From: Cyanidioschyzon merolae
Taxonomy: Eukaryota
Assembly (NCBI GenBank): GCA_000091205.1
Contig: AP006498.2
Reading direction: 5' to 3' (one strand)
DNA length: 64,000 nucleotides
Position numbers and translations under genes: made by a program. Under the pieces are notes generated by a model. The model was not told where the DNA came from and searched no databases. It saw nothing but the letters and a program-made list of their open reading frames with translations. Shown here one piece after another: positions 2,303-57,280 of this stretch (position 1 is the first letter of the stretch; the number at the start of each line of letters is the position of its first letter).

Positions 2303-5300
2303 TTGGTACATCTAACCAGAAGAGCATGGATACGTGAGTACTGCAGTTTACTAGCGTATGGCCGTTGGTGGACAATCTCGGATTACAGTGCTGTCGGTGC
2401 ACTGCTCCTGCGATCAGGACCGCCAATGGAGAAACTTGTATTCGCCGATGAAGATGGCAGGTGTCGTTGCTGCAGAAGCGACGCTTGCTATTCGCAAGGC
2501 GATCGCATGCATACGTCGGTGCATGCATGCGAGCGCTGCATGACACGCATTGATCGTTGCACGCACATACGTGTCCTGTTCATGGCGGGAATTCGGAGTG
2601 TCAATTCTAGGTCGTATTCTTCGTTCGTGTTGTGCACTTGTGTTGCTAGAGTACCGACTGCAATCCGTACAATGAGTGACAGGGAAGCGCGCGCTCAGCA
2701 GAATGTCGATGAGACGCCAACGCCTGCGGTATTGCAGTCGACTGCGCAGTTGGCGCTGCAAACGCCTTGCCCCTCCTCGCGTACCGCTTGTGCTCAAGTT
2801 CTCGATTCTCCAAGCAAAAGTGCGGGGTGGACATCGCGAATGCAGAAGCGGATGCGGCGCTTGATCCAATCGGTGGCGGCAGGGCGCAAGCGCCTCTTCG
2901 CGTTCGACACGGATGCAGGAGTCGATGGCGACAGCGCGTCCCATCAAGTAAGAGAGCGCGTTTCACTGTCGCTGAACGTTGTGGAGTCGTCCGCGAACCG
3001 ATCGGATCTGCTGGATACAACTGCTGTTTCAACGATACGAACGAATACGGATGTATCCCCGGTTGGAGACAGGTCGGCTGGCTTGGATATTCCGGACCAG
3101 AACCGAGATCAGTCACTGATGTGTGTGTCTCCGTGGTGCTCTATCGAGGATGCTCGTCAAAATGCAAGCCTCCGACAATGCCAATTCCAGGCTCGAGGTG
3201 CACTCGTACAGACAAGCATGCAGCCGGGCTCCCGCGGTACCGAGACGACTCGCGTGAGCTGCTCTCCGGCACGCGTACCAAGGAGCATGCCGGTCGCCGA
3301 CAACGATCCAAATGCGCCTGCCATGGAAAGAGCCCTCACATCGTCGCCGGTAGGTCAGTGCCAAGTCTCGACACCAGTGACGATACCGCGGATACCCCGC
3401 GACTCCGAAGAGACCGATGCGGCACCGGGATCCGCACATCCGCTACGTCCACGGAACGCTTCAATCGCTGACATTCATTCGTCACCAGAGCCGTTGCAGC
3501 ATTCAGTCACGATCCGAGCTCGATCCCCAGCCATTTTCGGAGACATAGGCATTCGCGATCCTCGCACCGGGCACGACGGAGGAATCATCCAGTACGGTGA
3601 TGAACATGTGGAGCGCGTTCCAGCCGCTGCAGCGAGCCCTGCGCAGGATCTCGTTCGCCTCACGCCAGCATCAGGCGCGCTGGGAGCCGTCGAAAGCGTT
3701 CCATACGCGTTCCATGAAAACAGCTTGCAGCCTGCTCGCAAGCCCTCGCCCGACCAGCACTGCCGGGATGTTGCAACAGCTGCGGATCGGTTTCCACTCG
3801 GTATCGCGAATGAAACACCGGAGACGGAACAAACGTTATCGTTACCAAAACCTGGGGCGCTTTCCGGCCCAAGCGGCGAAATTCCATTGAACCCTGCGCC
3901 CGTGCCTACTCCGTTGCTTCTGGGAGCGTTCATGCGTGCGCAAGTTCGAAATGATCCCTTCGCGAAAGACGCGACACAGCAGGGCGGTCCCTCACAAGCA
4001 CCGAAAGATGTCCAGCGTTCCGTGCATTCGACGAGCTTCCGTCAACGCTCAATCAGTCCCGAAATGCAATATGGCGCAGCGAGTACGCTCCGCTCGAAAG
4101 TAGCGGGTGCGCTGGCGCAATCGCTCTGGCAAGCGACCCTTCGAAAGCCGTCACTGGTCGCTGTGTTCTTGCATCCAAACGTAACACCGCATGCGCTCAT
4201 CGCTCACCTCTGTTTCCGCCATGTCGCAGAGCATCGGTCGCGAGTGCTCATCCTGCTGGACGACAATCCCGCAACCAATCTGAATATCAGTTTCGTGACC
4301 AGGTATGCTGTAGAGCTTCTCGCATACTTGCGTGCTGCGCTCGGCGACCGGATGGCGGCAGCATCGGCGCTTGGATTCAGTCCGAACGCTATTGTGAACG
4401 TTGCGCTGGTGACCTCTCAGCCAATGCTTTCGCCGTCATACCGCAGAGTGCATTTTGGTCTGATCATCGTCTTGGTCGGGGGTAGCGTCGAGCAACCGTA
4501 TGCAGGTAACCCTATGGATGATCGCATCGAGCCTGCCCTTCAGGCAACCTGGCTCAAGCAGTGGCTGGCACCGGTGCCGCTCACATCGACAGTGCTCTTG
4601 CTGCCGCTCTTGCCAGACTCTGGACAAGCGATACAAATACCTGAAACAAGCAGTGGCCATCCACGTCGTCAGCGGAGTGCCTACCGTCAGTTACTCAGCG
4701 TCGTGGACGCTCCATCGATAGGACAGTCCGTCAACGGTGCCGATGTAGCTGTCACGTCCACATCCAATCCTAATGCAGGAGTGGCGCGTGTCGAAGCCCA
4801 GCTTCTCGTCACCAATCCCGAAAACGCTCTCGTACAGGAAGAATCTCTTCGCCAACGGCAATGTGCACTGGCTGCCGCCTATCGGATCACGCCAGCGGAC
4901 GCCATTTTCACGCTCGTCTGTTGCGGTGAGCGTCTGCTACGTCTGCTGCTAAACGAGACGGCAGTGGAAGTTCAGCGAGATGTACCCGCGACGGATGCGG
5001 TAACTGCCCTTCCGTGTGGCTGCCAATTTCTACAGCACACCGCCGCAGACTACAGCCACATGATACGCGAGGTAGAGGATATAATTCGTCGATCGCTACG
5101 GCACCAGACAAGTAGTCGCCGTGCTCGAAAACGTTCAGGGCGAGCACTGCGGAGCGAGGCTCATCGGCTGATCGCGTTACACACGCTCCGCCAAGCCGTA
5201 TCGATGGCTTGCTTCGAAGGCGCGGATGTTGCTCTAGCATTTTTGAACCAAGCTCACCGTGAGTATAGTCGTTTCTACGGCGACAGCGCAGCGTCTGTGC

Positions 5301-6001
5301 AAATCATCGAAAATGCGACGCTGCAGTTCTTCGATCGCGTCAGAGATACACCTGCTCCGCAGCCGCATCCACTGGTGACCATCATTCGCACAGCGCTGTC
5401 GGACATTGTGCGATCCGATACCGGAACCGAATCCGCAGCAAAGCGCAAGATTCTCATCGTCACTGAAACAAAAGCAAGTGCGGCGTTACTCAAAGCTTGG
5501 ATAGCGTCTTCAGCCCGCCCAGTTACTGGGCAAGAACGCGATACGTGTCACAGATTAGACGCTCGGCTGGCTGGAGATCGGCAATTGGTGATTCGCCACG
5601 TCGAGGAGTTCCAGCAGAATGACCAACTGCCCTCTGAAACAGTGGGTTCGCTTTGCACCTTCGAGCCCTTCGACAAAATACTGTTGATCGCACCCAGCGT
5701 TCGTATGGCTGACCTATGCGGCCGCGCCCGGCTCTGGAGCGACCTGGGATGTGGAAGCTGCTTTCAAGTTACGCTCTATACGGTACTACAAGAGGAGTTG
5801 ACTCCTCTATCCCGCTGTAGTCTGACTGTGGATTACGATTCCGAATATGCGGAAATCTGGAGCATGATGAAGCAGCGTCAGCTTCATGCGTATCACGATG
5901 AACAACAACAGCCGGACTTTGAAGCCAGCGTCAGTACATGGATAGCACCACTGAGCTGTATCGAACGTTCCAAAGTGCGTCCATCCGAGGAGACCAGATG
6001 A
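2303..6001 (+). CDS. Large hypothetical protein (1232-aa ORF; true start probably downstream of 2303, e.g. the Met at ~2673)
   Basis: It is the longest + strand ORF in the left part of the window. I recognise no catalytic motif. It has a Cys-rich N-terminal segment, a Ser/Pro/Ala-rich low-complexity middle and a Leu-rich C-terminal half. Antisense ORFs overlapping it (2414..2947, 2646..3116, 3475..3933) look like GC-rich open-frame noise. Confidence 0.4.
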   Translation: MVHLTRRAWIREYCSLLAYGRWWTISDYSAVGALLLRSGPPMEKLVFADEDGRCRCCRSDACYSQGDRMHTSVHACERCMTRIDRCTHIRVLFMAGIRSVNSRSYSSFVLCTCVARVPTAIRTMSDREARAQQNVDETPTPAVLQSTAQLALQTPCPSSRTACAQVLDSPSKSAGWTSRMQKRMRRLIQSVAAGRKRLFAFDTDAGVDGDSASHQVRERVSLSLNVVESSANRSDLLDTTAVSTIRTNTDVSPVGDRSAGLDIPDQNRDQSLMCVSPWCSIEDARQNASLRQCQFQARGALVQTSMQPGSRGTETTRVSCSPARVPRSMPVADNDPNAPAMERALTSSPVGQCQVSTPVTIPRIPRDSEETDAAPGSAHPLRPRNASIADIHSSPEPLQHSVTIRARSPAIFGDIGIRDPRTGHDGGIIQYGDEHVERVPAAAASPAQDLVRLTPASGALGAVESVPYAFHENSLQPARKPSPDQHCRDVATAADRFPLGIANETPETEQTLSLPKPGALSGPSGEIPLNPAPVPTPLLLGAFMRAQVRNDPFAKDATQQGGPSQAPKDVQRSVHSTSFRQRSISPEMQYGAASTLRSKVAGALAQSLWQATLRKPSLVAVFLHPNVTPHALIAHLCFRHVAEHRSRVLILLDDNPATNLNISFVTRYAVELLAYLRAALGDRMAAASALGFSPNAIVNVALVTSQPMLSPSYRRVHFGLIIVLVGGSVEQPYAGNPMDDRIEPALQATWLKQWLAPVPLTSTVLLLPLLPDSGQAIQIPETSSGHPRRQRSAYRQLLSVVDAPSIGQSVNGADVAVTSTSNPNAGVARVEAQLLVTNPENALVQEESLRQRQCALAAAYRITPADAIFTLVCCGERLLRLLLNETAVEVQRDVPATDAVTALPCGCQFLQHTAADYSHMIREVEDIIRRSLRHQTSSRRARKRSGRALRSEAHRLIALHTLRQAVSMACFEGADVALAFLNQAHREYSRFYGDSAASVQIIENATLQFFDRVRDTPAPQPHPLVTIIRTALSDIVRSDTGTESAAKRKILIVTETKASAALLKAWIASSARPVTGQERDTCHRLDARLAGDRQLVIRHVEEFQQNDQLPSETVGSLCTFEPFDKILLIAPSVRMADLCGRARLWSDLGCGSCFQVTLYTVLQEELTPLSRCSLTVDYDSEYAEIWSMMKQRQLHAYHDEQQQPDFEASVSTWIAPLSCIERSKVRPSEETR

Positions 6002-6960: not shown

Positions 6961-8291
6961 TGGTCACTTCCCACTGTGACCAACGCCAGGTTTTTCGAAC
7001 CTTCTCTGAGACTGCTTCGTTTTCCCCCCGCCTGAGTCCGGATAGAAAAACGCGGGCGTCTCCTTTCCCTGTACAACCGTTGTTAGCAGTCGAAAGATAT
7101 TCACGGCAGCTTCCGGGTCCCGGCTTCGATGCTTCCAGCTGCTATCCATGCAATGGTTGCACCGACGGTAGTTGCGTTGAACGCCTCGCTTGCCGTCTCC
7201 ACCTTGTTTCTATGCAACTTCGGTGTACCCTCGGCAACGGTGCCACTTGACTGTGAGCAGGTGTTCTCGAGTGTCCGCCACCACACCCATTCAGAGCGCC
7301 TCGCCATGCCACGTGAGCAACGCTCGCTTCACCGCTCGCTGTACGCTCTGGACGAGTACAGAAGGCTCCCGTGGGTGCCTCTTCCGTGTCTGCAGCCCAG
7401 TGCAGTGGCCCGTGACCATGGGCTCGTTCGAGGTAGTGCCCTCGCCGAGTACTCGCTCTGGTGCACATGCCGGCGCACGCCGTTCTGCTGGACACTAGAA
7501 CTTTGGATCGCGGAGTTCCCGATGACGGAGCAAGGACCGCATGGAAAAGCCAGGCTGGTGAGGAGGCCGTCCAGTCTCGATGCGTCTACGCTCCCTTCGC
7601 GCTACGCGGTGACGCATCGTGTAATGGAAGCGACCGCTGCGGTGATTCGAGGTCTAGTCCATGACCCTTTTGAATGCAGAGAGAAGAGCGGGGAGCCTCT
7701 CGGTGCATGTGCTGTGAACGTTATCAGACTGTTGCCAGGGTCCATATTGTCGACGACCACAAAGGCGGGCGGCTTTGTCATTCGAAAGGCATCGATTATT
7801 TGTCGTGACAAGTGCAGTGAAGCGTAGGCATGAGCTTGTGAACAGGTCGCCAAGCGACGATATCGAGTGTATTTCCCCGTCAGCCCAGCGGTGCGAATTG
7901 TTGCACCCACGAGTTGCCTCGGAACAGAGCGATCGCCATCTCGAAGAATGGATGATTAGAGCATGTCAGGCGTACACCGGGCGGAGCCGCTGGAAGCTTG
8001 TTGGCGTGATTGGATGCAGCAATTGGTTATTGTATGAATCCTCTTTCGAGGGCGTGGCATGTTGTCTTGGTTCCAATGAAGTACGGAATTCCGGCTTCGG
8101 TGCGTCGGAGCATAGGAGCATCGAAGGAAAGAGTCGTTCTGGAAACACGACTGAGCATCCCAGCACTACGTATGCATCCATAAACCCGTATTGCTGCATT
8201 TCGTATCCCAATGCTGTGCTTCTCAAAAAAAAAAGTCCAGAAAGATCGCTTACGAGAAACGGAGCGGGCCGTTCAGCGTGCCATTTTAATT
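6961..8291. repeat. Left arm of long inverted repeat pair A (~1331 bp), near-identical to the reverse complement of 9990..11317
   Basis: ORF translations from 6964..7149(-), 7129..7827(+), 7602..7910(-) and 7775..8341(+) recur almost residue-for-residue on the opposite strand at 11130..11339(+), 10452..10904(-), 10369..10677(+) and 9992..10504(-). Outer and inner boundaries come from direct reverse-complement comparison of the sequence. Only a few substitutions are seen, plus a homopolymer length difference (A10 at 8225..8234 versus T8 at 10047..10054). Confidence 0.85.
8225..8234. repeat. A10 homopolymer inside IR-A left arm (T8 in the right arm at 10047..10054)
   Basis: Direct read of the sequence. 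The length difference between arm copies shifts ORF frames between the two arms. Confidence 0.8.
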
Positions 8292-8575
8292 GGACTTGCC
8301 TACATAGCACTGCACGGGCTAGGCATCGTTTCGCTCGTTGACCACCGTGGCCGCATATTCGTCACCATACATTCCACTCATACGTTCGCAAAGTGTGAAA
8401 CACACTCTATCAAGGGTCTGCTAACCCAAACAAGAAGCGTGTCGCAACGCAGCAGAGCAAATGCCGCCCATCGTTCCAGCCTCCTCCCATTCTGAGCAGT
8501 GGCGCGTGCCAGGAGATAACGTAGGCTCTGGAATCAAACGGGAACCTGCGCTGCCGTGGAATCTCGGGATACTGG

Positions 8576-9607
8576 GTGCTTGCTCAAGGCCAAAGGTCTT
8601 CAAGAGAGCCCCAGATGGTTTTTCTCGAAAAGCTCGACGACTTGCTCAAAGGATATGCGCCTGCTCGTGTTGTTATGACTGGATTCGAGCTCGGTGTCTT
8701 TACGATGATCGCTGAAGGAAAGACTACTGCGGAGGAGGTAGCCCGTGCTGCAGCGTCTTCGACCCGCGGGATGCGCATGCTTCTGGACGCTTTGACTAGT
8801 CTGGAGCTCCTGCAAAAACACAATGATCGCTACCAGCTGGTGCCGGGATCCGAGGCAGCGCTTGTGAAAAGCAGTCCTCAGTACATCGGTTCTATGTGGG
8901 AGACGAACCACCTGTGGAGCGCGTGGAGCGCGCTCACCCAAGTTGTGCGTACAGGCAAGCCCTACACTCGCCTCGAAACCGAGAGCGACGCAGCGCGCTT
9001 TTTCCCTATGCTGATCCGCAGTCTACACGTTTACAACTTGGAGCCAGCCCGTAAACTCGCCGGGCTTCTGTTACCATCACAGATACCACCAGACAGTCGT
9101 GTTCTCGATGTTGCCTGTGGAAGTGCCGTCTGGAGTATCCCTTTCGCGGAAGCGTCTTCAGAGGTACGACTTGATCTCCTTGATTTCGGGGATGCGCTTG
9201 CTGTGGCACGGAGCTATGTTGAACGGCATAAGGTGGATGCCCAGGTTTCGTACATCCAAGGGGACTTGAAACATACAGACTTGGAGAATGATCGATATCA
9301 TCTTATTATTCTCGGGAATATCGTTCATTCGGAAGGGGCAGCCTCATCTCGGGATCTCATTCAACGTTGTGCACGGGCGCTACGCTCAGGCGGCAAGCTC
9401 GCCATTATTGACCTGTTTCCGAATGAGGAGCGCACTGGACCGCCACGGGCAGTTCTCTTCGCCCTTAATATGCTTATTAACACTAGCGAAGGTGACGTTT
9501 TCAGTGTATCCGAGTATAACCAATGGTTCGAGGATGCAGGTTTGAGTGAAGGCACTCTAGTGCAACTGGGATCCACAACTACAGCGCTGCTGGCGGCTAA
9601 ACCCTGA
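8576..9607 (+). CDS. Class I SAM-dependent O-methyltransferase: bacterial-type Dimerisation2 plus Methyltransf_2 (CrtF/caffeate-OMT-like family)
   Basis: The N-terminal winged-helix dimerisation region (VVMTGFELGVFTMIAEGKTTAEEVARAAASSTRGMRMLLDALTSLELLQKHNDRYQLVPGS) is followed by the SAM-binding motif LDVACGSAVWSI, an acidic loop LDLLDF, the GDL motif and a C-terminal LNML...GDVFSVSEYNQWFEDAGL segment typical of O-MTases. It sits as a single ORF in the unique core between the IR-A arms. The true start may be the Met at MVFLEKLDD. Confidence 0.75.
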   Translation: MLAQGQRSSREPQMVFLEKLDDLLKGYAPARVVMTGFELGVFTMIAEGKTTAEEVARAAASSTRGMRMLLDALTSLELLQKHNDRYQLVPGSEAALVKSSPQYIGSMWETNHLWSAWSALTQVVRTGKPYTRLETESDAARFFPMLIRSLHVYNLEPARKLAGLLLPSQIPPDSRVLDVACGSAVWSIPFAEASSEVRLDLLDFGDALAVARSYVERHKVDAQVSYIQGDLKHTDLENDRYHLIILGNIVHSEGAASSRDLIQRCARALRSGGKLAIIDLFPNEERTGPPRAVLFALNMLINTSEGDVFSVSEYNQWFEDAGLSEGTLVQLGSTTTALLAAKP

Positions 9608-9989
9608 GCAAGCGCAGCACCCGACGAGCACTGCTGGTTACTGCTGGGCAAGCAGTTACCAGATTCTCGGTGACATGATGTCGATCCAGCTGCAATACCG
9701 TCCTGAATAGGAACGCCGCAAAGTCATACGCAGATTAGAATAGTTTTAAAGAGGGATATCATTTCGGAGCCACTGACACATGGTTCGCAGACCAATCGGT
9801 TGGTGCACAGCGTTCGGGCAGCAGGTCGCCAGTGGTATGCAACAGAACTTGAGTGAACATAGAAGGCGGCAATAAACGGAAACGAGTATTCGTGTCATCG
9901 CTCGCTTTGGTAGCAAGATCATCCCCTGTACAATGCATCCGGGAGAAGTCAGTCTCTCGAGTGCAGATATAGGCACTGCTCGCATACCA

Positions 9990-11317
9990 GATTAAAATGG
10001 CACGCTGAACGGCCCGCTCCGTTTCTCGTAAGCGATCTTTCTGGACTTTTTTTTGAGAAGCACAGCATTGGGATACGAAATGCAGCAATACGGGTTTATG
10101 GATGCATACGTAGTGCTGGGATGCTCAGTCGTGTTTCCAGAACGACTCTTTCCTTCGATGCTCCTATGCTCCGACGCACCGAAGCCGGAATTCCGTACAT
10201 CATCGGAACCAAGACAACATGCCACGCCCTCGAAAGAGGATTCATACAATAACCAATCGCTGCATCCAATCACGCCAACAAGCTTCCAGCGGCTCCGCCC
10301 GGTGTACGCCTGACATGCTCTAATCATGCATTCTTCGAGATGGCGATCGCTCTGTTCCGAGGCAACTCGTGGGTGCAACAATTCGCACCGCTGGGCTGAC
10401 GGGGAAATACACTCGATATCGTCGCTTGGCGACCTGTTCACAAGCTCATGCCTACGCTTCACTGCACTTGTCACGACAAATAATCGATGCCTTTCGAATG
10501 ACAAAGCCGCCCGCCTTTGTGGTCGTCGACAATATGGAACCTGGCAACAGTCTGATAACGTTCACAGCACATGCACCGAGAGGCTCCCCGCTCTTCTCCC
10601 TGCATTCAAAAGGGTCATGGACTAGACCTCGAATCACCGCAGCGGTCGCTTCCATTACACGATGCGTCACCGCGTAGCGCGAAGGGAGCGTAGACGCATC
10701 GAGACTGGACGGCCTCCTCACCAGCCTGGCTTTTCCATGCGGTCCTTGCTCCGTCATCGGGAACTCCGCGATCCAAAGTTCTAGTGTCCAGCAGAACGGC
10801 GTGCGCCGGCATGTGCACCAGAGCGAGTACTCGGCGAGGGCACTACCTCGAACGAGCCCGTGGTCACGGGCCACTGCACTGGGCTGCAGACCCGGAAGAG
10901 GCACCCACGGGAGCCTTCTCTACTCGTCCAGAGCGTACAGCGAGCGGTGAAGCGAGCGTTGCTCACGTGGCATAGCGAGGCGCTCTGAATAGGTGTGGTG
11001 GCGGACACTCGAGAACACCTGCTCACAGTCAAGTGGCACCGTTGCCGAGGGTACACCGAAGTTGCATAGAAACAAGGTGGAGACGGCAAGCGAGGCGTTC
11101 AACGCAACTACCGTCGGTGCAGCCATTGCATGGATAGCAGCTGGAAGCATCGAAGCCGGGACCCGGAAGCTGCCGTGAATATCTTTCGACTGCTGACAAC
11201 GGTTGTACAGGGAAAGGAGACGCCCGCGTTTTTCTATCCGGACTCAGGCGGGGGAAAACGAAGCAGTCTCAGAGAAGGTTCGAAAAACCTGACGTTGGTC
11301 ACAGTGGGAAGTGACCC
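9990..11317. repeat. Right arm of inverted repeat pair A (reverse complement of 6961..8291)
   Basis: See the left arm. The inner junction is at 9990/9991 (attaaaatgg) versus 8281..8291 (ccattttaatt). The outer junction is at 11317 versus 6961. Confidence 0.85.
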
Positions 11318-11709: not shown

Positions 11710-13191
11710 TTATGAGTGCGTCGCAGTGGACGCATCGCCGAAACGCTTTCGCGTCAACGGAATACCAGCTGCTCGGAGTACTCGCCGCATCTGGGTCGAA
11801 AGACCAAGCTCCTCCAGAGCTATCGCCCGTACCCAGCGACCTTGATCTCCATCATCCAGAAAGCATGGATTACCTGTAACTTCCACCCGAAACACCTGAA
11901 TATCCTGCCGAATATGCGTGAAGAGGTGCCGCACCATCTTTGGTATCGGGGTGATGGATACAACACTCAGCTTAAACGATTTCTGGGAATTGAGCGCTGC
12001 AGCAAGTTGTCTGAACACTTCCGATCCGGCCGCGCTCTCCCCGCCATCTTTCTCTTCCGGTTCGATGAATCCTTGCTGCGCTAGCGGATGCGGGTCAGCA
12101 TGGGGCAGGCGCTCCACCACGATGTTCGGTACCTCCCAGAGGCCACCAAGCAGGCCGTGCGAGGCGCGGCGTCTGACGTAATACAATGTCTCTGTGCTGT
12201 CTGACGCGGCATGAGGAGCAACAGAAGCGACCAACACGAAAGCTAAAAGCAGTTCTTGGCGAGCTCTGACGCGCGGCATATGACGTTGCAATTTCAGTTT
12301 TCCCTCGGAGATTTCCGCAACACCATAGGGCGTACTCTGCCGAACCGAAATGGGAAGCGCGGCCGCCCTGCAAAACTTCTGAACTGGGCACACCGCACAT
12401 GCCTCTTCTGTTACCTGTGCCGTGCACAGAGATCTCCCGAGGTCGAAAACAGCCTGGTTCCAGTCCCCTGGCCGGTTTGCATCCACGAGCTCCGAAGCTA
12501 CCGCTGCTAGGAGGCGCTTTCCATCTCCTTTCCACACGTTCGTGCAGCACATGCCAGCAAGGCGCGATACGACTCTCGTTGCGTTGCCATCGATTGCGGG
12601 AACCACTGCCCCGAACGCTATCGAGGCGATGGCGCTGGCAGTGTACACCCCAATACCTGGAACTTGTTCCAGATCCCGGACGGATGCGGGTATTTTGCCA
12701 CGGTTTTGTGCTACGATCCACTTGGCACCGGCGTGCAGCATCCGAGCACGGCGGTAGTATCCGAGGCCGGCCCACTGCTGCAACACCTCTTCCTCGGTAG
12801 CCGCAGCGAGCGCCTCAACGGTCGGAAAGCGTCGCATCCACTCCATGAAATACATCTCTACTGTCTTGACTCGAGTCTGCTGAAGCATCACTTCACTGAC
12901 GTAGACTTGGTAGGGATCGGGACGACCGCCCCGTTGGCGCCACGGTAACTGTAGCGCCTGGCTGTCGTACCAGCGCAAAAGTGCGCCCCGTAGCTGAGCA
13001 AGCTCTTCGAGGTCCCAAAGTCTCAGCTTTTCCGTAGCGAGGTGCTGGTGTCGAGCACTGCCACGCTTCGTGTGCGAGTTGAGCTGAACGTTGCGCTCTT
13101 TCATGTGAGCTGGAGCGGCTACCTTCTTGTGGCACAAGTTTGGTTTCAGAATGGACCCGCTTCGTCTAAGCGCACACACACTATAGGCCAT
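11710..13191 (-). CDS. MUTYH: Adenine DNA glycosylase MutY / MUTYH homologue (HhH-GPD glycosylase plus C-terminal NUDIX-like domain)
   Basis: There is a long collinear match to MUTYH by recall: LRWYDSQALQLPWRQ..YQVYVSEVMLQQTRVKTV..W..FPTVEALAAATEEEVLQQWAGLGYYRRARMLHAGAKWIV...VPGIGVYTASAIASIAFG...IDGNATRVVSRL. The helix-hairpin-helix GPD region is present, and so is a Cys cluster (CTAQVTEEACAVCPVQKFC) consistent with the 4Fe-4S loop. The C-terminal part is NUDIX-like. The start may be the internal Met at ~13107. Confidence 0.9.
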   Translation of the reverse strand: MAYSVCALRRSGSILKPNLCHKKVAAPAHMKERNVQLNSHTKRGSARHQHLATEKLRLWDLEELAQLRGALLRWYDSQALQLPWRQRGGRPDPYQVYVSEVMLQQTRVKTVEMYFMEWMRRFPTVEALAAATEEEVLQQWAGLGYYRRARMLHAGAKWIVAQNRGKIPASVRDLEQVPGIGVYTASAIASIAFGAVVPAIDGNATRVVSRLAGMCCTNVWKGDGKRLLAAVASELVDANRPGDWNQAVFDLGRSLCTAQVTEEACAVCPVQKFCRAAALPISVRQSTPYGVAEISEGKLKLQRHMPRVRARQELLLAFVLVASVAPHAASDSTETLYYVRRRASHGLLGGLWEVPNIVVERLPHADPHPLAQQGFIEPEEKDGGESAAGSEVFRQLAAALNSQKSFKLSVVSITPIPKMVRHLFTHIRQDIQVFRVEVTGNPCFLDDGDQGRWVRAIALEELGLSTQMRRVLRAAGIPLTRKRFGDASTATHS

Positions 13192-22201: not shown

Positions 22202-24390
22202 CCGTTCGAGGGCGCTGTGACTGTCATGCATTGCTTGATCGCTGCAATTTGTGTGTCCTGATCATACGTTCCAATAATCCCGCTCAGGCCGGGTGTGGAA
22301 TGTGACGCTGCCTGGCCTCGAAGAGTTCCTCGCATGTTGCTGGCGGCCAAGAAACATGCAGGGTGATGTGTTCGCCCAGGCTCGCGCTCGGCAGGCGTTT
22401 CAAGTGCATCGCGTGCAACCGCGTTGCTAGCGCCCAAAGTTAGCAACTGAGGGTCCTCAAAGCGCTTACGTATAGAGCTTGTAAAGACTTGTTTCATCCA
22501 GCTTTGCAGGTGCTAGCGTTGTCACCAATCGAAACGAAGCACTCAGCTCCGTGGCTTCGCCTTTGTTGTGGAGTCGGCAAGAGCGGAAGAGCGTTGCCCG
22601 GCAGCGCCTTGTCGACTATTCTCGTAGCAGTCACGAAGCAACTTCAGAGGTTCCTGGCAAGCGGACCAGTCTCGGTCGTGCTCGCCAAGGCAGGCCTCTA
22701 GTCGCTCGTACGCCTCCCTGCACCCGTGCAACTCGAGAACCTGCTCTATATCGCAAGACGTCGACTCAGAGTTTGTACGCATTTTGTTCTATAGCATTCG
22801 AGATAGATACCGCCTGAGCCTAGACTTGTACGCTATCAAGCTCTTGACGCAGCGCGCTTGCCGAAATAGGTTTTAACGGCGAGTACGCAGTCGAACGGAT
22901 GAACGACGCGCGGTTGCAGGGGTCGGCGCGTCGCGGATGCTGCGCGCAGCTTCCAGCTCAAGATCGCTTCTCCGCAGTGCGGCATCGCCGCTACCACAGT
23001 TATGAAGACGATCTTGTCTCGCGATCCCGATAGAGCACAGTGTAGTGCCGGGACGGTGGACTTGCGGACCGACGATATCGATCCAAACCGTCGGTAGAAG
23101 AACGTCCGCTGCACCGATTGGTTGCTGTGATGCATATCAACTCGAAGTTCGGGCCTAAGAAGCACCTGGACTGGTGTCAGCGCTATGGAGTTCGAGAAAC
23201 TAGCACCACTTGGAGTTGGTAACGCGTGCCGCGCTGGGTTGACGGTCTCTGGGCTGTTTGTAAGTTCGGCAAGTTTTGATATGTCTGTCGAGGTACCAGC
23301 GTGCGCCTTGCTCTGGAGATTTTGTAGAGCGTCATGGATAGCTCGAAGCCACCATGAACGCTTGATTTTTTGAAGTAAACGTTCTGCTTCTCGGATTTTC
23401 GGTGGTGCACCCGACGAAAAGACCCGTAAGACCTGAGTACGCGAAAGGAAAACGTGACCAAGGAACATTATCCAAGTGTAGCATGAGCGTTCTCAGCGAT
23501 TGCCCACTTCTCCATCATCGTTCAAACCGTCGCTTGTTTTTCTAATGCCACGAGCTCGTGGCTGGCTCACATCGAACTAGGCAGCACCCCAGGTGCAATG
23601 ATCCCAAAATATCAACAGGATGATGCGCCCAGCGCTGCGGATGAAATCATTACGGTTCGATTGCATCGTCCAAAACGCCTGTTGGACAATGTTTACATCT
23701 GAAACGCTCCCAGAAGACTGAAATCAGAGAGCATGAGCTCTTTTAAGCGGCGCCTTCCGTCATGTGCCTGGATGAATCGCAGGCTCGCGGTGACGATCTC
23801 AAACCAAGAGACTGTCACGAGCGATCGTTGATCGAGGACGCCTGCAGGCTTTGGCACCACAGCGTTCCAGCCGGAATGCGCATCAGGCGTCCAGGTCGGG
23901 CTCGCTGAACGATGTCGTGCTGTTTCGACGAGACTGCTATATGGGAATCGACTTGCACGTTATCGCGAGTGGAGCAGTCTCTACATGCAGTCGCGATTGC
24001 TCATGCATGCGCGCGTTATCCTGAAACAAGCTTGGAAACGCAGGATCTGTTGCAGCGCTTCAGTGGGCCCGAAACGGCTTATTACAGGGTCGTTCACCCT
24101 GCAACTTTAGCTGAGACGCGCTACCACGAGTGTGATCCATCTATCGTCATTAGTATGATGAAAAAAAATTGCGCCTATTGCATTAACCAGTGATGCTTCC
24201 TACGGTCCATGATTCGAACGATTCACTTTTCCCATCCTTTTCCGTCAAGCACGAAATCCGGGTGGAAAATACGCTTGCAGCATCCTTATATCACAACTTG
24301 AGCCTAGAGGTTGCACGCGCGAGTCCATCCATCATTGTCCGTGGAGAGTAGCCGCTGGAAAGGGCATTCCATTTCCGACGCCGCAGTCAG

Positions 24391-25255
24391 CACGAATGTC
24401 AGACATAAATGGGAGGGATCCACGAATAGAACGCGGGCGGTGGCTCTGAAATTAGTGTGCCTCGCAATGCCACTGGCACCAGCGTTGGCGGGCCTATGCT
24501 GCGACTGCGTCCTAGTCCCCGCTCCGCCATCTCCGACTTGGAATACGCAAGTCGCTCGCATGCCCCCGATTCCTTCAGTAGGAATCTGGTGATTTCGGTG
24601 GCAGCCTCCGGGCGCCGATGTCGCAGTTCCCGACTGTTGTCGACGCGTTTCGTGTGCAGACGATGGTTGCATCTATGCGTTGCGTGTCATTCACATGCGC
24701 CTTACATTCAGCCTCACTGCGACCTTCGCAACCGGGTGACACCTGACTTTGGACGCGTTTCCCCGTATGCCTACATCATGCTGTCCTGACCCAAAGGCCA
24801 CGAAGACGTTGCGCGTGAACACTTGCTGCATCTCTCGGTACACGCTTTGTACGTGTACAGAAGGCTCGCCTCGATGCCCGCCTGAACGTTTGCGCCCGGT
24901 GCTGCGCGCTACGATCACGGGTTTCTTCTGGGCGATCCTGTAGGGCGCGTATACTGTCCGCTACACGCGCTCGCTCTTCTACTCGCAAAGCGATTTCTGG
25001 GAAGCGAAGTTGACCGTGATGTACCGAGCACCGGAGGGGAATCCTTGCTGAAGATCAAGCAGCGTAATAAGGATGCGTCTAGGCTCCCTGCATTCGTGCA
25101 GAGCTTCGATGCATGCTGCCATGCAAGCGATCGCTGCGATGACTCAAGTCCACGCCCGAGACCCATTTTCACGCGAACAGAAGAGACCAGAGCGCCTGGA
25201 AGCATATTCCGTGGTAGGTATCATGCCATTGGCGAATGTCGTTTCGCCGATGGCG
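24391..25255. repeat. Left arm of inverted repeat pair B (~865 bp), reverse complement of 29270..30133
   Basis: ORF translations 24304..24672(-), 24457..24789(+), 24691..24918(-), 24915..25205(-) and 25045..25359(+) recur on the opposite strand at 29852..30313(+), 29735..30067(-), 29606..29833(+), 29319..29609(+) and 29132..29479(-). Boundaries come from direct reverse-complement comparison of the sequence and show a few mismatches only. Confidence 0.85.
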
Positions 25256-25870
25256 ACTCGGAAATTCGGATTTGTCTTTCGAACGGAAGCGATTACTTGA
25301 CTTGCCAAAGCTCAGCCAACCCTCTGCATGAATCTGTTCAACAAGTCGTCTCGAGATGAGGTATAGCTCTTTCTCGTCGTCATTCCGGCGGCGCGAAACT
25401 CTTCAACGAAGAGTGCCTATGGAAGCGAACGATCGAAAACTTCAATAACCCGTGATTTGAGCACGCTACTAGCCATGAAAGCAGTAGAGTGCGGACTTGT
25501 ACACCTGAATAGGATCATGGTATTCAATGTTTTACAAACCCTTGTTCGAAGTCGTCGCGTATCATCTTGATTCCTATGACGTGAGGAATTCCAGACGCAA
25601 AGCGTTGAAGCAGCCACCCACTGAAAAACAGCCGCGAATCCTTAGAAGTCGTACGAATCCATACGCCGTGATTCCTAGACTTTGAATACCGACGCTTTGC
25701 ATCTATACATGGACCGGGAGCAAATCGAATTGCAGGAACCGAGCGAGCAGCCCAATATTCCTCATAAATCCGACACGGGCATAGCGTGCGGTCGAACACG
25801 GGTCAGTGGTGGAGCATCCGCTGGATGCACCTGTCCTGGCGATCGCCAAGTCGATACTGTTTGCCTATCT

Positions 25871-27520
25871 TTAGAGTATAAAGAAACGCACAATGCGTTC
25901 AGCATAGGGACGGACCAGTTCCAGCTGCTGAACGATGTCATTCTTGATAACCAGGTTCACGAAGATGTAGGCCGCGATGACAGCAAGTGCCAAGCGACCG
26001 AGAACTTTCTCCGCCAGACCGGAACGGACAACATCCCGTACGTTCGTACGGATCCAGGTCACGAGCTCCTCGTCGCTCATGACACTAAGCTGCTCCCGAA
26101 TGAGTTTCAGTTCATCGGCCAGTGGCTTTGGAGCAATCGTGCCTGTTGTCTTGTCGTTTTCAAGCACCGGAGGTTTTGTGTCGGATATGGACCGAGCGCT
26201 TGCCGACCAGTCTCTGGTGTTAGCGTCGATGGGCACTTGCGTTGTGCTTGCTGCGCGCATGTCTTGAATGCTTTGTTGTAAACGAAACACGACATCCTCG
26301 CGTTTCTTGAGTCGCTCAACAGCCGCCTTCCAGAGCTTCGCACCCTCGGTTTCGGCGGTGTAGAGCTCACCGTCCCAATCGTAGCCACCAGTGAAAAGCT
26401 GGGAGAGTTCGCGGCGCAAGTTTTCGTCGAGAGGGCGCCCACGTAGACTTGTTATCCCACGCTTTTCTGCTTCTCGAATTGAGAATTCCGCATCTGGGTT
26501 CGACGGATCCAAGATTCCTTCTAGGAAGGGCGCCAGCGCCTTTCTCGCTGAAGCAAGGTCCTCGACTGCTGCTTCCATAAAGGCGCGACGTTGTTCAGGA
26601 GTGGCCAGTCGCATGGCGCGCTCTGCCTCTTCCGTGGGTTGCTCCGTCAGTTTCGATAGGGACGCATATTTGCACAGAATGGCTTCAATGTCGAGCCTCT
26701 CGCTTTTCAGCTTCTGTTCGAACTCACTAAAGTTACGCTTGCATATCTCCTCCAGCTTCCGCTCAAACTCTTCTTGATATGTTTCCCAGGACAGTTGGGG
26801 GTCTTCAGTGATCACCTCGTCATCGGGACGCCCGAGCGCCGCCAAACGTCGCTGGAACTGAGCCCAAGCCGTCGCTACACCACTTGCCACGGCAGCTGTC
26901 TCCGAGGCGTGCTCGGTGTGGATACGCCGCAGTGCTGTTTCGAGCTGTGCGCTTGTCATCTTCAGAGTCTTGTTTGCCTGCTCGCGGCTGTAGCCCATGA
27001 ACGCGTTTGCGCGCGCAGCTAGATACAAGAGCTGCAAGCGCAAAAGCAACAACAAGTTGCCGAAAACGCGAATCACGAGCGCTGCTGTATGCTGCGGCTC
27101 AGCCTCGCTGGACGGATCTCTAGTCCAGAAAGCGCTCTGCGTTCGTGAAGATAACTCTGGTTGCGTGCCCCTGACGTGACGCACGCGATCGCCGGCAAAG
27201 GTTCCAGATTTGACAAGGTTTCGAGATAGCGTTCCGACCTGTGCCCTGAATTCACGAGCGACTCGAGTTCCAGCGTTCGCGAAATAGCGTAACGCCTGTG
27301 ATGCGATGCTCAAAAACTTCTGACTCGCCTCGTGGAACAGGCTTACATTCGCACTGGCCACGACGAGGAGCGCTGCTGAGATAATCAAGAAGAAGAGTAG
27401 CGGAATGATGTTGGCGAGGGCTTTCCTGTTCGACGGCGATACTGAAGCACCAGAGGGATTCGTCACGATCATGGCTATTGTTGCCCGTTGAGCTTCGACT
27501 CGTGCATTGGTGTAGAGCAT
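25871..27520 (-). CDS. Coiled-coil membrane protein with N-terminal signal-anchor-like helix and C-terminal transmembrane tail (function unknown)
   Basis: It lies within the 735-aa ORF 25871..28078. The first ~186 aa of that ORF look like non-coding read-through. From the Met at ~27520 (MLYTNARVEAQRATIAMIVTNPSG...) there is a hydrophobic helix (IIPLLFFLIISAALLVVASA), then about 400 aa of heptad-like charged sequence, and a C-terminal hydrophobic anchor (LALAVIAAYIFVNLVI). No enzymatic motif is recognised. Confidence 0.45.
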   Translation of the reverse strand: MLYTNARVEAQRATIAMIVTNPSGASVSPSNRKALANIIPLLFFLIISAALLVVASANVSLFHEASQKFLSIASQALRYFANAGTRVAREFRAQVGTLSRNLVKSGTFAGDRVRHVRGTQPELSSRTQSAFWTRDPSSEAEPQHTAALVIRVFGNLLLLLRLQLLYLAARANAFMGYSREQANKTLKMTSAQLETALRRIHTEHASETAAVASGVATAWAQFQRRLAALGRPDDEVITEDPQLSWETYQEEFERKLEEICKRNFSEFEQKLKSERLDIEAILCKYASLSKLTEQPTEEAERAMRLATPEQRRAFMEAAVEDLASARKALAPFLEGILDPSNPDAEFSIREAEKRGITSLRGRPLDENLRRELSQLFTGGYDWDGELYTAETEGAKLWKAAVERLKKREDVVFRLQQSIQDMRAASTTQVPIDANTRDWSASARSISDTKPPVLENDKTTGTIAPKPLADELKLIREQLSVMSDEELVTWIRTNVRDVVRSGLAEKVLGRLALAVIAAYIFVNLVIKNDIVQQLELVRPYAERIVRFFIL

Positions 27521-28269
27521 GCTCGCCGTCGACGCTCGAGTCTCTCCCGGGAACGGGTCACCACTAGGGATAGATACCGCTCGGCAGCATGCAGCAGTCC
27601 TTGCCTTCTTTGCGCAACCATGACGCTGTATGGTCACCATCGCGCGCCTTTTGCGAGCATAGCTATCTGTTTCAGAAAATTTTTCCCCAGAGAGCAACTT
27701 AGTTTGAAGCTTGATCCTTTTGTGCACAGTGCGTTTCGGCGCCTGCTCGTTCAATTTTCGTACGAAATAAGGCTCACGGAATGCAAATACACTCAGCAGG
27801 TCTTTGCGTCGATGCTCGGACTTGAGCGTCAATCGCCATCGACAAGGCAGCGCGTTTTCGCAAAAGCGCCACGTGCGTATACCTCCTAAAAACGAACAGA
27901 GAAAGCCGTTTCGTGTGGCGGCATTCTTGCTTATCGTAAACTCGGCCCCTAAACTTTGTTTTGCCGGTTGGAAAACGCGCAACCGTTCGCTTGTGGTTGC
28001 TAGCGACCCTGGGTTCGCTGCCCGCTCGCCAGCACCGAGCAGCCCCAGTGACTGGTGCAGCCAAGCTAACTCGCCCATGGTATGTGCACGTTCACCTCAG
28101 CTTCTAGTTTCTTTCGCACACGATGTCTCTGCATGAGGCTGAACCGTCGCCCCTCGTATCCTATGAAACGTACTTTTGAGCGTTTCCGCGCACCCAGCAC
28201 TGCCTTCGCCGCCCTAGCACTATTCAAAAGCGCGCTCTTTGAGCGGCCTTCAAATCGGCAATCCGTAAG

Positions 28270-28895
28270 AGCATCCGCGCGATCGACGATGACTGCTGAG
28301 CACTCAGCGATGCCTAGGTCAGACTTGTCTCAAATGCAAGTCTTTCACCTCAATTGTGTTCCACAGCTAGGCGCTTGTCATGAACTGCTTTTTCGCGGTT
28401 TATAGGCGACGCCTTCCAAATGCGTCCATTTGATGACATGAAAAGGCTAAGGGGAAGGTATGGACATGCAGGAGGGGGTTTCGAGGGACCGATGTTGCCG
28501 TGTGCTGGGAGAAGTACGAAAAATATCCCCTTTTCACGGACTATCAAGCAAAGAAGAGCAAGTGACGTAGAAGAGTACGAAAAGAGCATCCGCGCGATCG
28601 ACGATGACTGATGAGCACTCAGCGATGCCTAGGTCAGACTTGTCTCAAATGCAAGTCTTTCACCTCAATTGTGTTCCACAGCTAGGCGCTTGTCATGAAC
28701 TGCTTTTTCGCGGTTTATAGGCGACGCCTTCCAAATGCGTCCATTTGATGACATGAAAAGGCTAAGGGGAAGGTATGGACATGCAGGAGGGGGTTTCGAG
28801 GGACCGATGTTGCCGTGTGCTGGGTGAAGTACGAAAAATATCCCCTTTTCACGGACTATCAAGCAAAGAAGAGCAAGTGACGTAGAAGAGTACGA
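28270..28895. repeat. Tandem duplication, 2 copies of a ~313-bp unit
   Basis: The stretch agcatccgcgcgatcgacgatgactg[c/a]tgagcactcagcgatgcctaggtcagacttgtctcaaatgcaagtctttcacctcaattgtgttccacagctaggcgcttgtcatgaactgc...aagagcaagtgacgtagaagagtacgaa occurs at 28270..28583 and again at 28584..28895. Identical peptides appear in ORFs 28350..28589(-) and 28665..29096(-). Confidence 0.85.
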
Positions 28896-29269
28896 AGAAA
28901 GAGAGTGGAGATAGACGAGGAAGGTTTTCGTCCCACGAGCCAATGACGGGGCTGTAATGGCACAAAGGACAAGCGTTCGAGGAATCCTTACAGAGGTGAA
29001 TCGAATCAGCTGCACTGCATACATGAAATTCGTAAAACGAGACTTCAAAGCCGCCATCAATGTCAGACGATGTCTGGTACTGAAGACGAGACCCACTGAG
29101 CTGAACCGAGAGAACTTCTTGAGGCGTCAGCTCAGACTCGAAGTTTGCGCGGAGAAACTGAAACCAATAGCAGGCGGCCGGTCCAAAAAGCAGGCAGACC
29201 TCTGCGAAAGGATGCGCGTATACAACCTACGTGATCGCGAGCTGCTCTTCTTTTTGCCGACCATAGATA

Positions 29270-30133: not shown

Positions 30134-30775
30134 AAGAGCGCGCCGCGTCGACTACTTTGCCGCGATGCGCGCCGCTTTCGTGGCGACGGTGTCGCGGATA
30201 CTCGCAGGCACACGACCTTCGGTGGATCGTTGCCATCCCAGGCACGTCCGCTGGCAATCGTTCGGCCATGTATGCGACGCATCACGAGTTCCGCCTGGAA
30301 TGTGAAGCGATGAACGCCATCCGATCGCGATCATAGGATCGACATCGATGCCCTGAAATCCACACACAGCATCTCATACGCTTGCCTGACCGTGCTCCCT
30401 TTACCCCAGCGATCTGGTATCCAGAACAGATGCCGTCTCTTCGCCGAGGCACCTTCCATGACGCAGAACCTCTAACCCGCGCCTACGCTCTCTCCCTAGT
30501 TCCATCGGTCCTATTCAAAGCTCGCCGATACCGAATTGATAAATGTCATAGTTTGTGCGCTGCACCAAGAGTGCAGGTCGGGCGAGATGGATTCGCGCTT
30601 CCACCGCGTCGGCTGCTTGCCGTCGTCAGCGCTGGAACGACGCGGCACCTTCGCGCAGCAGGGCGATCTTGTGGCGCTCGTCGCCCGCGCAGGCTGCTGG
30701 GCAGCGTGAGCAGCCAGCGGATACGATCCCGTCGTACACAGCTGCAGCGGTACGAGGTATTCTGGTTGTAATTCG

Positions 30776-57250: not shown

Positions 57251-57280
57251 GCGGCAACAGCGCTGCAGCGAATCCCCTTT

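Follow-up and report, generated by a model that had tools for sequence, protein, structure and literature searches.

A methyltransferase gene of bacterial appearance lies between two long inverted repeats within the Cyanidioschyzon merolae 10D genome, and this arrangement raises the question of whether the gene came from a bacterium and whether the repeats brought it in. Exact protein matches place the window (the whole stretch of DNA analysed here, 64,000 nucleotides in length) on chromosome 16. The locus comprises the following features.

2303 to 6001, + strand: upstream neighbour, an open reading frame of 1232 amino acids with no Pfam match, serving as a synteny anchor (tblastn).
6962 to 8293, + strand: left arm of the inverted repeat (pair 1), a full-length non-coding repeat copy, 98.7% identical to the right arm (nhmmer).
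8294 to 9986, no strand assigned: unique sequence separating the arms, within which the methyltransferase gene lies.
8576 to 8614, + strand: GTG-initiated, in-frame upstream extension, probably 5' untranslated and non-coding, judging from the database entries and from where homologue alignments start.
8615 to 9607, + strand: methyltransferase coding sequence, 330 amino acids, BAM81745.1, "similar to C-methyltransferase" (exact annotated match).
9987 to 11316, - strand: right arm of the inverted repeat (pair 1), also present in environmental contigs L009, L010, L014, L015 and L017.
11710 to 13191, - strand: MutY-like adenine DNA glycosylase, BAM81746.1, the downstream synteny anchor (Pfam HhH-GPD and NUDIX_4; exact annotated match).

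The open reading frame given in a preliminary description of this DNA (8576-9607, + strand) is present, spans 343 amino acids from a GTG and contains all of the peptide motifs quoted for it. The predicted start codon is nevertheless the ATG at 8615 and not the GTG at 8576. Translation of 8615-9607 reproduces BAM81745.1/XP_005537781.1 at every one of 330 residues, and it is this version that is annotated in NCBI and UniRef, where the 343-residue version has no exact counterpart. Close homologues all measure 330-345 amino acids, and their alignments begin at about residue 4 of the 330-residue form. The GC content of the gene (53.5%; GC3 53%) is similar to that of adjoining genes, so that composition offers no independent sign of foreign origin. 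Literature searches with the accession numbers of the methyltransferase and its likely CMP locus tags returned nothing on this locus.

Pfam searches identified two domains in the protein, Dimerisation (PF08100; E = 1.1e-13, 51.2 bits against a cut-off of 25.6, residues 18-96 of the 343-residue frame) and Methyltransf_2 (PF00891; E = 2.1e-13, 50.5 bits against a cut-off of 22.3). Of the layout proposed earlier, Dimerisation2 followed by Methyltransf_2, the second element thus stands, while the N-terminal domain is Dimerisation. Homologues reach E-values of 1e-98 to 1e-218, and the domain and family assignment is therefore no chance match. The AF2 model is of high confidence (pLDDT 94, pTM 0.89); its residues 2-75 form helices and then a beta-hairpin, and Foldseek comparison with the PDB returned full-length matches (TM 0.84-0.89) to RedM, 2r3s, MfnG, PigF, DsyB and human ASMT. 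On sequence and model, the predicted product is a family-2 SAM-dependent methyltransferase combining a Dimerisation domain with a class I Rossmann-like domain. The enzyme would be dimeric, its N-terminal part being a winged-helix dimerisation domain and its C-terminal part a Rossmann-type SAM-binding domain, and its predicted activity is SAM-dependent methylation of a small-molecule acceptor.

An alignment of 46 homologues shows D165, G169, D190, G216, H238 and E240 to be invariant and D217 to be nearly so. The stretch LDVACGSAVW is a variant of the DxGxGxG SAM-binding motif I and corresponds in the alignment to LDVGCGTGLYS in MfnG and LDVGGGTGAFA in DsyB; motif I and the acidic positions for the SAM ribose and adenine are accordingly present, at D165, G169, D190 and D217. 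H238 lies within GNIVHSEG and aligns with the histidine of LPNFLHHF in 2r3s and of FANIFHLQ in MfnG. By analogy with these solved relatives it is probably the general-base histidine after beta-strand 4, which would activate a nucleophile on the small substrate, a catalytic role attributed to it from the family.

Among known enzymes, Npun_R0239 (2r3s, of unknown function), RedM, the tyrosine O-methyltransferase MfnG, PigF and DsyB/DSYB share with the algal protein the full-length two-domain fold, the SAM-binding motifs and the histidine of the NIVHSEG motif. Unlike orthologues, however, it is only 21-27% identical to characterised family-2 enzymes, so none of these can be considered orthologous and substrate specificity is not transferable. 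Superfamily and domain layout are also common to BchU and CrtF-type C-20 methyltransferases, from which the annotation "similar to C-methyltransferase" probably derives. The protein falls outside the BchU-type C-methyltransferase family (TIGR02716), where it reaches 29.8 bits and the cut-off is 276.1, and none of the NCBIfam models reaches its cut-off.

The affinities of the protein were examined with two queries against 5.8 billion proteins, including nr, UniRef and EukProt, taking the best 120 matches to each query. Cyanidialean proteins come first (99, 75, 71 and 69% identity), and the next matches stand at 51% or lower. Named relatives from outside the Cyanidiophyceae in these best 120 matches are all bacterial, at about 44-52% identity, and belong mostly to the Acidobacteriota; the names comprise Pyrinomonadaceae, Acidobacteriota, Terriglobia, Rhodospirillales, Sumerlaeota and Gemmataceae, together with one mine-drainage metagenome. 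No eukaryote other than Cyanidiophyceae occurs among the named entries in the best 120 matches to the two queries, most entries being nameless; more distant eukaryotic homologues could rank below these 120. The majority of the bacterial and metagenomic relatives have no taxon name, and the nearest 50%-cluster representatives and top matches are almost all metagenome or MAG proteins without a name, so that the donor is placed no more closely than among bacteria. An exhaustive HMMER search retrieved 7649 cluster representatives at E ≤ 1e-3, 447 of them at E ≤ 1e-30, and a scan of GTDB genomes with the single methyltransferase protein gave one marginal match only.

Six contigs bearing homologues encode two-component systems, sigma-70 region 4, a TonB-dependent receptor, IS transposases and SBP_bac_5, and are thus bacterial in content. 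With the named outgroup relatives bacterial as well, and the algal clade nested inside them, the characterisation of the gene as a bacterial-type O-methyltransferase is borne out. The accompanying statement that bacterial members dominate its domain layout is correct for the subfamily of this methyltransferase and imprecise for Methyltransf_2 as a whole, in which plant, fungal and animal enzymes are abundant. The bacterial gene neighbourhood is not conserved: the commonest true neighbours occur in 14/85 and 11/85 of the loci, and neither has a Pfam match. A neighbouring PF04227 (Indigoidine_A/PsuG-like) gene, considered as a clue to function, was discarded; it adjoins the methyltransferase in three Acidobacteria-like loci only and is missing from three other bacterial contexts and from all of the metagenome loci (0/79, flanks of ±4 kb scanned).

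The position of the gene on the chromosome is shared with relatives of C. merolae. The order of a large gene (+), the methyltransferase (+), MutY (-), an OTU gene (+) and a GRAM-domain gene (-) is common to C. merolae, Cyanidiococcus and the MAG GCA_041825655.1. By tblastn, a homologue of the 1232-residue frame with 38-40% identity lies upstream of the methyltransferase both in Cyanidiococcus (L001) and in this MAG (L002), and the position and strand of MutY are unchanged in contigs L001-L005. Methyltransferases at the syntenic loci of these sister taxa are 69-75% identical to that of C. merolae, whereas their neighbours in the block reach 38-55%, making the methyltransferase the best conserved gene of the block. 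The finished chromosome and five or more independent assemblies all place the gene between the conserved cyanidialean gene and MutY, and this physical linkage to native eukaryotic genes means that it is not contamination. The sister loci contain neither an inverted repeat nor any copy of the repeat family. Once the arms are subtracted, C. merolae has 1282 nt of intergenic sequence upstream of the gene and 772 nt downstream, compared with 1081-1778 and 408-773 nt in the relatives, and the intergenic regions of C. merolae do not align with those of the relatives even by sensitive blastn.

Orthologues are also found in Galdieria sulphuraria, G. partita and G. phlegrea. Their presence in both deep branches of the Cyanidiophyceae indicates a gene no younger than the crown group and, combined with the synteny of repeat-free sister loci, one that has been inherited vertically within the class since before the repeats. 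That the closest homologues belong to sister taxa and occupy the same syntenic position is largely the outcome which the preliminary description had named as refuting its proposal, and it speaks against any recent or mobile origin. In neighbour-joining (NJ) analysis, the Cyanidioschyzon clade and the Galdieria clade were each recovered in 200/200 bootstraps and their union in 185/200, with a shared algal stem of 0.12 substitutions per site. The combined algal clade lies eight nodes deep among bacterial and metagenomic sequences, and the NJ tree therefore displays the pattern that Rossoni et al. 2019 (PMC6629376) adopted as their criterion, algal monophyly with nesting among at least three non-eukaryotic sequences. 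As the trees are NJ only, long-branch attraction could account for the union of the two long branches of the algae.

Together, the domain family, fold, synteny, repeat-free relatives, bacterial named outgroups and algal monophyly observed here make it likely that the gene was donated by a bacterium to the cyanidiophycean ancestor and then inherited vertically, and that the inverted repeats came later and had no part in it. On this reconstruction, from which we infer the direction and timing of transfer, a bacterium would have passed the gene to the ancestor of the Cyanidiophyceae, red algae of hot springs, before Galdieria and Cyanidioschyzon split. Vertical descent under purifying selection would have followed, with a fixed chromosomal position in the Cyanidioschyzon/Cyanidiococcus lineage, and the non-coding repeat copies would have arrived to flank a gene that was already resident.

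The gene resembles the horizontally acquired orthogroups of Cyanidiales described by Rossoni et al. 2019 (PMC6629376) in being present in both Galdieria and Cyanidioschyzon and in its linkage to native genes. Its identity to bacterial relatives (44-52%) may be compared with mean values of 41-46% for those orthogroups, and the GC content of the transferred C. merolae genes in that study is, as here, no different from that of native genes. The same authors list OG0002431, a Cyanidiales-wide "rather unspecific SAM-dependent methyltransferase", among 96 orthogroups derived by horizontal transfer, and the gene studied here probably belongs to it. An already annotated gene of a model alga would then also probably figure on a published list, as part of a well-documented class that makes up about 1% of cyanidialean genes and is of bacterial origin; if it is not OG0002431, it is a further candidate of the same kind.

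Two separate transfers from related bacterial donors, one into Galdieria and one into the Cyanidioschyzon/Cyanidiococcus lineage, would account for the fact that the C. merolae protein is 43-46% identical to its Galdieria orthologues but 44-50% identical to bacterial proteins, and for mean NJ distances of 0.95 to Galdieria versus 0.89 to the close bacterial set. "Multiple HGT" orthogroups described by Rossoni et al. 2019 (PMC6629376) provide a precedent. Against such a scenario, which we regard as unlikely, stand the recovery of the algal copies as monophyletic in most NJ bootstraps and the stem that they share.

It is quite unlikely that the gene descends from an early eukaryotic or plastid-bearing ancestor, was kept only in the Cyanidiophyceae and merely looks bacterial. 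Such differential loss is discussed as a standing alternative for orthogroups of this type (Rossoni et al. 2019, PMC6629376), and both the occurrence of the gene in the two deep branches of the class and a composition indistinguishable from native genes are in keeping with it. The best 120 matches to either query, however, hold no other named eukaryote, and the algal clade lies several nodes inside the bacterial and metagenomic sequences instead of forming a sister to all of them. Moreover, the identity to bacterial proteins is high for a split as old as that between eukaryotes and bacteria, and many independent losses would be needed.

The inverted-repeat position reported for the gene was confirmed, with arms of about 1.33 kb separated by a 1.69-kb spacer, and the arms recur in independent metagenome assemblies. 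Recent entry into C. merolae as cargo of an element bounded by these 1.33-kb repeats is highly improbable, for although the gene lies exactly between 98.7%-identical inverted arms and its nearest relatives beyond the algal class are bacterial, it occupies the orthologous site both in Cyanidiococcus and in another, third cyanidialean genome, where inverted repeat and family copies are lacking, Galdieria orthologues exist, the arms have neither Pfam-matching open reading frames nor terminal inverted repeats of their own, the same repeat family brackets ordinary eukaryotic genes (CMP105C and, as direct repeats, MSH2), and a protein identity of about 50% to bacteria does not fit a recent transfer. 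A mobile cassette would be missing from the orthologous site or found at differing sites; here the gene is in place in the relatives. The proposal that the inverted repeats were the vehicle of acquisition is thus not supported, the sister loci indicating that the repeats are secondary. As synteny makes the gene older than the repeats, they are uninformative about how it was acquired, and the location of a gene between inverted repeats should not in itself be read as evidence of mobility.

Four further copies of the family, forming two more pairs, were located in the window by nhmmer, in which the left arm matches other copies at E = 1e-43, 5e-30 and 1e-9.

24385 to 25797, + strand: full-length family copy, left member of pair 2, with 24391-25250 99.5% identical to its inverted partner.
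29274 to 30139, - strand: truncated family copy, right member of pair 2.
52642 to 53165, - strand: internally deleted family copy retaining both ends, copy A of pair 3.
57272 to 57854, - strand: internally deleted family copy, copy B of pair 3, in direct orientation to copy A, with which it is 98.8% identical over 428 nt.

Pair 2 brackets CMP105C (25871-28078, - strand) and pair 3 brackets MSH2 (54185-57250, - strand). Across the three pairs in the 64-kb window, the two members of a pair share 98.7-99.5% identity, and copies from different pairs about 57%. The family is specific to C. merolae, diverged and non-coding. Open reading frames in the arms have no Pfam match, so that neither a transposase nor an integrase can be recognised; a search of the arms for terminal inverted repeats found none, and the alignment, inspected by eye, revealed no convincing target-site duplication at their boundaries. 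The arms contain no tRNAs and show no similarity to plasmids, and the whole 64-kb window contains no Rfam family. A single gene between long, near-identical inverted repeats recalls composite transposons and foldback or Pack-type elements. The locus differs from all of these in its ancestral syntenic position, in having no recognisable transposase or terminal inverted repeats, and in that another pair of the family is arranged as direct repeats.

Literature searches turned up no account of inverted repeats in the C. merolae nuclear genome, and the family of about 1.3 kb may be so far undescribed. C. merolae is regarded as nearly repeat-free and serves for gene targeting through homologous recombination; with near-identical 1.3-kb repeats flanking genes, genome stability and construct design could therefore both be affected. 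A lineage-specific repeat family that brackets three unrelated genes, one of them on a segment that perhaps inverts, may matter more than the methyltransferase itself.

The possibility of inversion arises from metagenome contigs, among which the methyltransferase spacer is oriented either way with respect to the MutY flank. In L008 and L012 the MutY-side flank and arm are joined to the 5' end of the methyltransferase gene, and in L009, L010 and L011 the arrangement is that of 10D. The environmental arms are mosaics of several haplotypes in which arm-specific SNPs are not diagnostic for inversion as opposed to assembler choice, and the two orientations could represent either real inversion or assembly ambiguity. 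Flip-flop inversion mediated by inverted repeats is known from plastid genomes and the yeast 2-micron plasmid. The present locus is like these in having a unique segment between long inverted repeats and in showing both orientations among assemblies; unlike them, it is nuclear, implicates no site-specific recombinase and is known in both orientations from contigs that are probably short-read metagenome assemblies. We suggest, tentatively and with some doubt, that the repeat family spreads by local duplication to bracket genes, and that the pair flanking the methyltransferase drives flip-flop by homologous recombination, with both isomers coexisting in hot springs. Many other contigs, of 1.74-1.81 kb, consist of the spacer with short stretches of both arms. 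Comparison of 10D with the environmental contig L006 shows polymorphism of 0.6% in the coding sequence, 2.8% in the 5' non-coding part of the spacer and 1.3% in its 3' non-coding part.

The open reading frame (ORF) that the preliminary description placed at 8576-9607 on the plus strand is present with the peptides quoted for it, but the ATG at 8615 is a better start than the GTG at 8576, because only the resulting 330-aa form, and not the one of 343 aa, is publicly annotated as a protein, and because homologues are 330-345 aa long, with alignments beginning at about residue 4. Exact sequence matches assign the window to C. merolae 10D and to the chromosome with the CMP genes, presumably chromosome 16 going by the letter code of C. 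merolae locus tags. The genome is a finished and annotated eukaryotic one with a GC content of 55-56% and nearly no introns. The following ORFs are identical to annotated 10D proteins:

8615-9607, plus strand: methyltransferase coding sequence, exact match to BAM81745.1 / XP_005537781.1, "similar to C-methyltransferase", 330 aa
11710-13191, minus strand: A/G-specific adenine glycosylase (MutY-like), BAM81746.1
25871-28078, minus strand: CMP105C
47591-52408, minus strand: CMP113C
58408-59469, plus strand: BAM81758.1

Of the two domains proposed for the protein, Methyltransf_2 was recovered (PF00891, 2.1e-13), while the matching N-terminal model is Dimerisation (PF08100, 1.1e-13) rather than Dimerisation2, each scoring above its Pfam gathering score. 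The AlphaFold2 model, computed from an alignment of 46 sequences, is confident (mean pLDDT 94, pTM 0.89) and was matched by Foldseek over its full length to RedM, Npun_R0239 (2r3s), MfnG, PigF, DsyB and human ASMT, with TM scores of 0.84-0.89. The fold is thus like that of solved family-2 methyltransferases throughout, although identity to them is only 21-27% (sequence-level E = 4e-33 to 5e-15). Little or no variation is seen among the 46 homologues in the SAM-binding motif LDVACGSAVW, at the acidic residues D190 and D217 or at H238 of GNIVHSEG, and these sites align with their counterparts in 2r3s, MfnG and DsyB. By analogy, the protein would be a dimeric SAM-dependent methyltransferase with His238 as general base and a small-molecule acceptor. 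No NCBIfam equivalog reached its cut-off for the methyltransferase; the BchU C-methyltransferase model, which scores 29.8 bits against a cut-off of 276.1, is probably the source of the public "similar to C-methyltransferase" annotation. Alignments to bacterial homologues reveal no N-terminal extension and therefore no hint of organelle targeting.

On three Acidobacteria-like contigs, a PsuG-like gene (PF04227; Indigoidine_A / pseudouridine-5'-phosphate glycosidase-like) adjoins the methyltransferase homologue, in two arrangements:

L019, 5027-5932: methyltransferase homologue with PF04227 gene
L021, 7045-7956: methyltransferase homologue with PF04227 gene
L022, 5032-5937: methyltransferase homologue with PF04227 gene

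Assignment of a function through this neighbour was dropped, as the pairing occurs in none of three other bacterial contigs and none of 79 metagenome loci; no annotated neighbour is common among the bacterial and metagenome loci.

Homologues were sought among 5.8 billion proteins, and the best 120 matches per query were examined. Identity to the C. merolae methyltransferase is 99% within the C. merolae cluster, 75% in Cyanidiococcus yangmingshanensis (KAK4530772.1, 330 aa; 71% for a truncated 289-aa model from the same species) and 69% in a third cyanidialean known from Yellowstone-type metagenomes and from MAG GCA_041825655.1, after which it falls abruptly to at most 51%. Below this fall, all named matches among the best 120 are bacterial (Pyrinomonadaceae, Acidobacteriota, Terriglobia and Rhodospirillales), and the best 120 of a second search, with the homologue P0060 as query, add Sumerlaeota, Gemmataceae and a mine-drainage metagenome. 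Six homologue-bearing contigs, of up to 3.4 Mb, have clearly bacterial gene content. The family is large, since an exhaustive HMMER search returned 7649 cluster representatives with E ≤ 1e-3, of which 447 reach E ≤ 1e-30, the top ten being metagenome or MAG proteins. In one Cyanidiococcus assembly (GCA_013995675.1; L001, 9941-10932), where the public model is 289 aa, the gene is split into three tblastn segments in differing frames; a second assembly carries the intact 330-aa protein, and the broken frames are more likely assembly frameshifts than a pseudogene.

P0060 is the neighbour-joining sister of the cyanidialean clade (138/200 bootstraps). Its contig (L026, 1-7314; JGI 3300050354), with 40% GC and very few long ORFs, pointed to an intron-rich eukaryote, and P0060 proved to be a Galdieria protein, with 82% identity to a G. 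sulphuraria "O-methyltransferase" when used as query. Further copies were found in G. sulphuraria, G. partita and G. phlegrea, and the gene is therefore present in both deep branches of the Cyanidiophyceae. On this environmental Galdieria contig the methyltransferase ORF is uninterrupted amid almost no other long ORFs. The gene is therefore a single exon although the genome is rich in introns, as would suit an origin in bacteria.

To place the algal copies, we used a neighbour-joining tree with Kimura-type correction only, comprising 335 trimmed columns and 135 sequences, of which 3 were Cyanidioschyzon-type, 7 came from Galdieria, 85 were close relatives from bacteria or metagenomes and 40 were representatives at a greater distance. 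The Cyanidioschyzon and Galdieria clades were each recovered in 200 of 200 bootstraps and joined to one another in 185. With midpoint rooting, the algal clade lies eight nodes deep, within the main block formed by the 85 close bacterial sequences, and its sister is a small group including a Rhodospirillales MAG sequence. The gene was thus rightly described as bacterial-type, its named relatives outside the Cyanidiophyceae being bacterial among the best 120 matches to either query and the algal clade being nested among bacterial sequences. These sequence comparisons favour a single ancient bacterial acquisition before the Galdieria/Cyanidioschyzon split, with the caveats that neighbour joining was the only method, both algal lineages form long branches, and C. 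merolae is slightly more similar to bacteria (44-50% identity) than to Galdieria (43-46%). The last of these observations would suit two parallel bacterial acquisitions, one per algal lineage, but the union of the algal copies in the tree speaks against this scenario, which we consider improbable.

About 1% of the genes in cyanidialean genomes are of bacterial origin, with 33 candidates in C. merolae 10D, and such candidates generally resemble native genes in GC (Rossoni et al. 2019, PMC6629376); at 53.5% GC and 53% GC3, the methyltransferase gene is like its neighbours. The same study lists OG0002431, a "rather unspecific SAM-dependent methyltransferase", as an HGT-derived orthogroup common to all Cyanidiales (PMC6629376), and the gene fits this orthogroup by description alone. 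The gene is probably an ordinary ancient bacterium-to-alga transfer, vertically inherited thereafter and already catalogued.

Gene order around the methyltransferase was the decisive test of the proposed cassette. The succession of a large gene lacking Pfam domains (plus), the methyltransferase (plus), the MutY-like gene (minus), an OTU gene (plus), a GRAM-domain gene (minus) and the next gene (plus) is shared by the Cyanidiococcus locus (L001) and those of the third cyanidialean (L002-L005). The closest homologues thus occupy the same syntenic position in sister taxa, which is the outcome named as refuting in the preliminary description, and the proposal that the gene is mobile cargo fails. 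The methyltransferase is the best conserved member of this block (69-75% amino-acid identity vs 38-55% for its neighbours), and 10D and an environmental allele differ at 0.6% of coding sites, compared with 2.8% and 1.3% in the non-coding spacer sequence on either side; such conservation indicates a putatively functional methyltransferase gene under purifying selection.

The inverted repeat of the preliminary description is real, its arms of about 1.33 kb being 98.7% identical and separated by a 1.69-kb spacer containing the gene. At the syntenic loci of Cyanidiococcus and the third cyanidialean there is no inverted repeat, nor was any copy of the arm family detected. Without the arms, the C. 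merolae intergenic lengths (1282 nt upstream, 772 nt downstream) agree with those of the relatives (1081-1778 and 408-773 nt), as would be expected if one arm or both had been inserted only in the lineage of C. merolae.

The window was compared by alignment with ten metagenome contigs whose allele is 99% identical. Three have the 10D arrangement across an arm, leading from the methyltransferase 3' end through the arm to MutY (L009, L010) or from the large gene through the arm to the methyltransferase 5' end (L011). Two from separate projects, L008 (8350-11440; ENA, k141_972340) and L012 (1854-5137; JGI 3300002182), instead lead from the MutY-side flank through the arm to the methyltransferase 5' end, and thus represent the inverted isomer, as confirmed by the unique sequence to either side of the arm. 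Many contigs of 1.74-1.81 kb (L006, 1760 nt; cluster members, 1738-1813 nt) consist of the spacer and short stubs of the arms; such assemblies, breaking at the repeat, are independent evidence that the inverted repeat exists in wild populations. Arm-internal SNPs in the environmental contigs are a mosaic of several haplotypes, and the arms exceed the inserts of short-read sequencing, the likely technology behind these assemblies. For both reasons, the inverted spacer may be either a true recombinational flip-flop or an arbitrary assembler path across the 1.33-kb repeat.

Self-comparison of the window revealed two further near-identical pairs of repeats:

6962-8293 and 9987-11316, inverted: pair 1, bracketing the methyltransferase
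24385-25797 (full-length) and 29274-30139 (truncated), inverted: pair 2, bracketing CMP105C
52642-53165 and 57272-57854, direct: pair 3, internally deleted with both ends kept, bracketing MSH2

Profile and single-sequence nhmmer searches identified all six elements as diverged collinear relatives. Matches to arm 1 lie at 24465-25232 and 30059-29290 for its first half (E ~1e-43) and at 25266-25760 for its second half (E = 5e-30). The copies at 57823-57572, 57517-57296, 53097-52943 and 52887-52666 match at E = 1e-9 to 4e-4. The elements thus form a non-coding family of about 1.3 kb with six copies in 64 kb, 98.7-99.5% identical within pairs and about 57% between them. No Pfam match was obtained for the ORFs of the arms, the arms have neither terminal inverted repeats nor similarity to plasmids, and the 64-kb window contains no tRNA or Rfam match. 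Read from the coordinates, one copy of each pair precedes the gene that the pair brackets, and it is always the same end that faces the start codon. Because the repeats also bracket ordinary eukaryotic genes, they are no mark of foreign DNA. The link drawn between the gene and its inverted repeat was mistaken. The family may be a locally hopping non-autonomous mobile element, a promoter-like module that duplicates, or an element of another kind; together with the possible inversion, this gene-bracketing family is more unusual than the methyltransferase itself.

The MSH2 ORF (54185-57250, minus strand) encodes 1021 aa from its first ATG, compared with 980 aa in the NCBI model BAM81757.1, and the 1021-aa form likewise occurs among database proteins; only about 20-50 nt, depending on the nhmmer search used, separate the start of this longer ORF from the inner end of the pair 3 copy at 57272-57854. 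The window also contains two near-perfect tandem repeats, one at 28267-28896 (315 nt x 2, 99% matches), flanked by CMP105C on one side and the truncated copy of pair 2 on the other, and a second at 37268-37733 (93 nt x 5, 98% matches).
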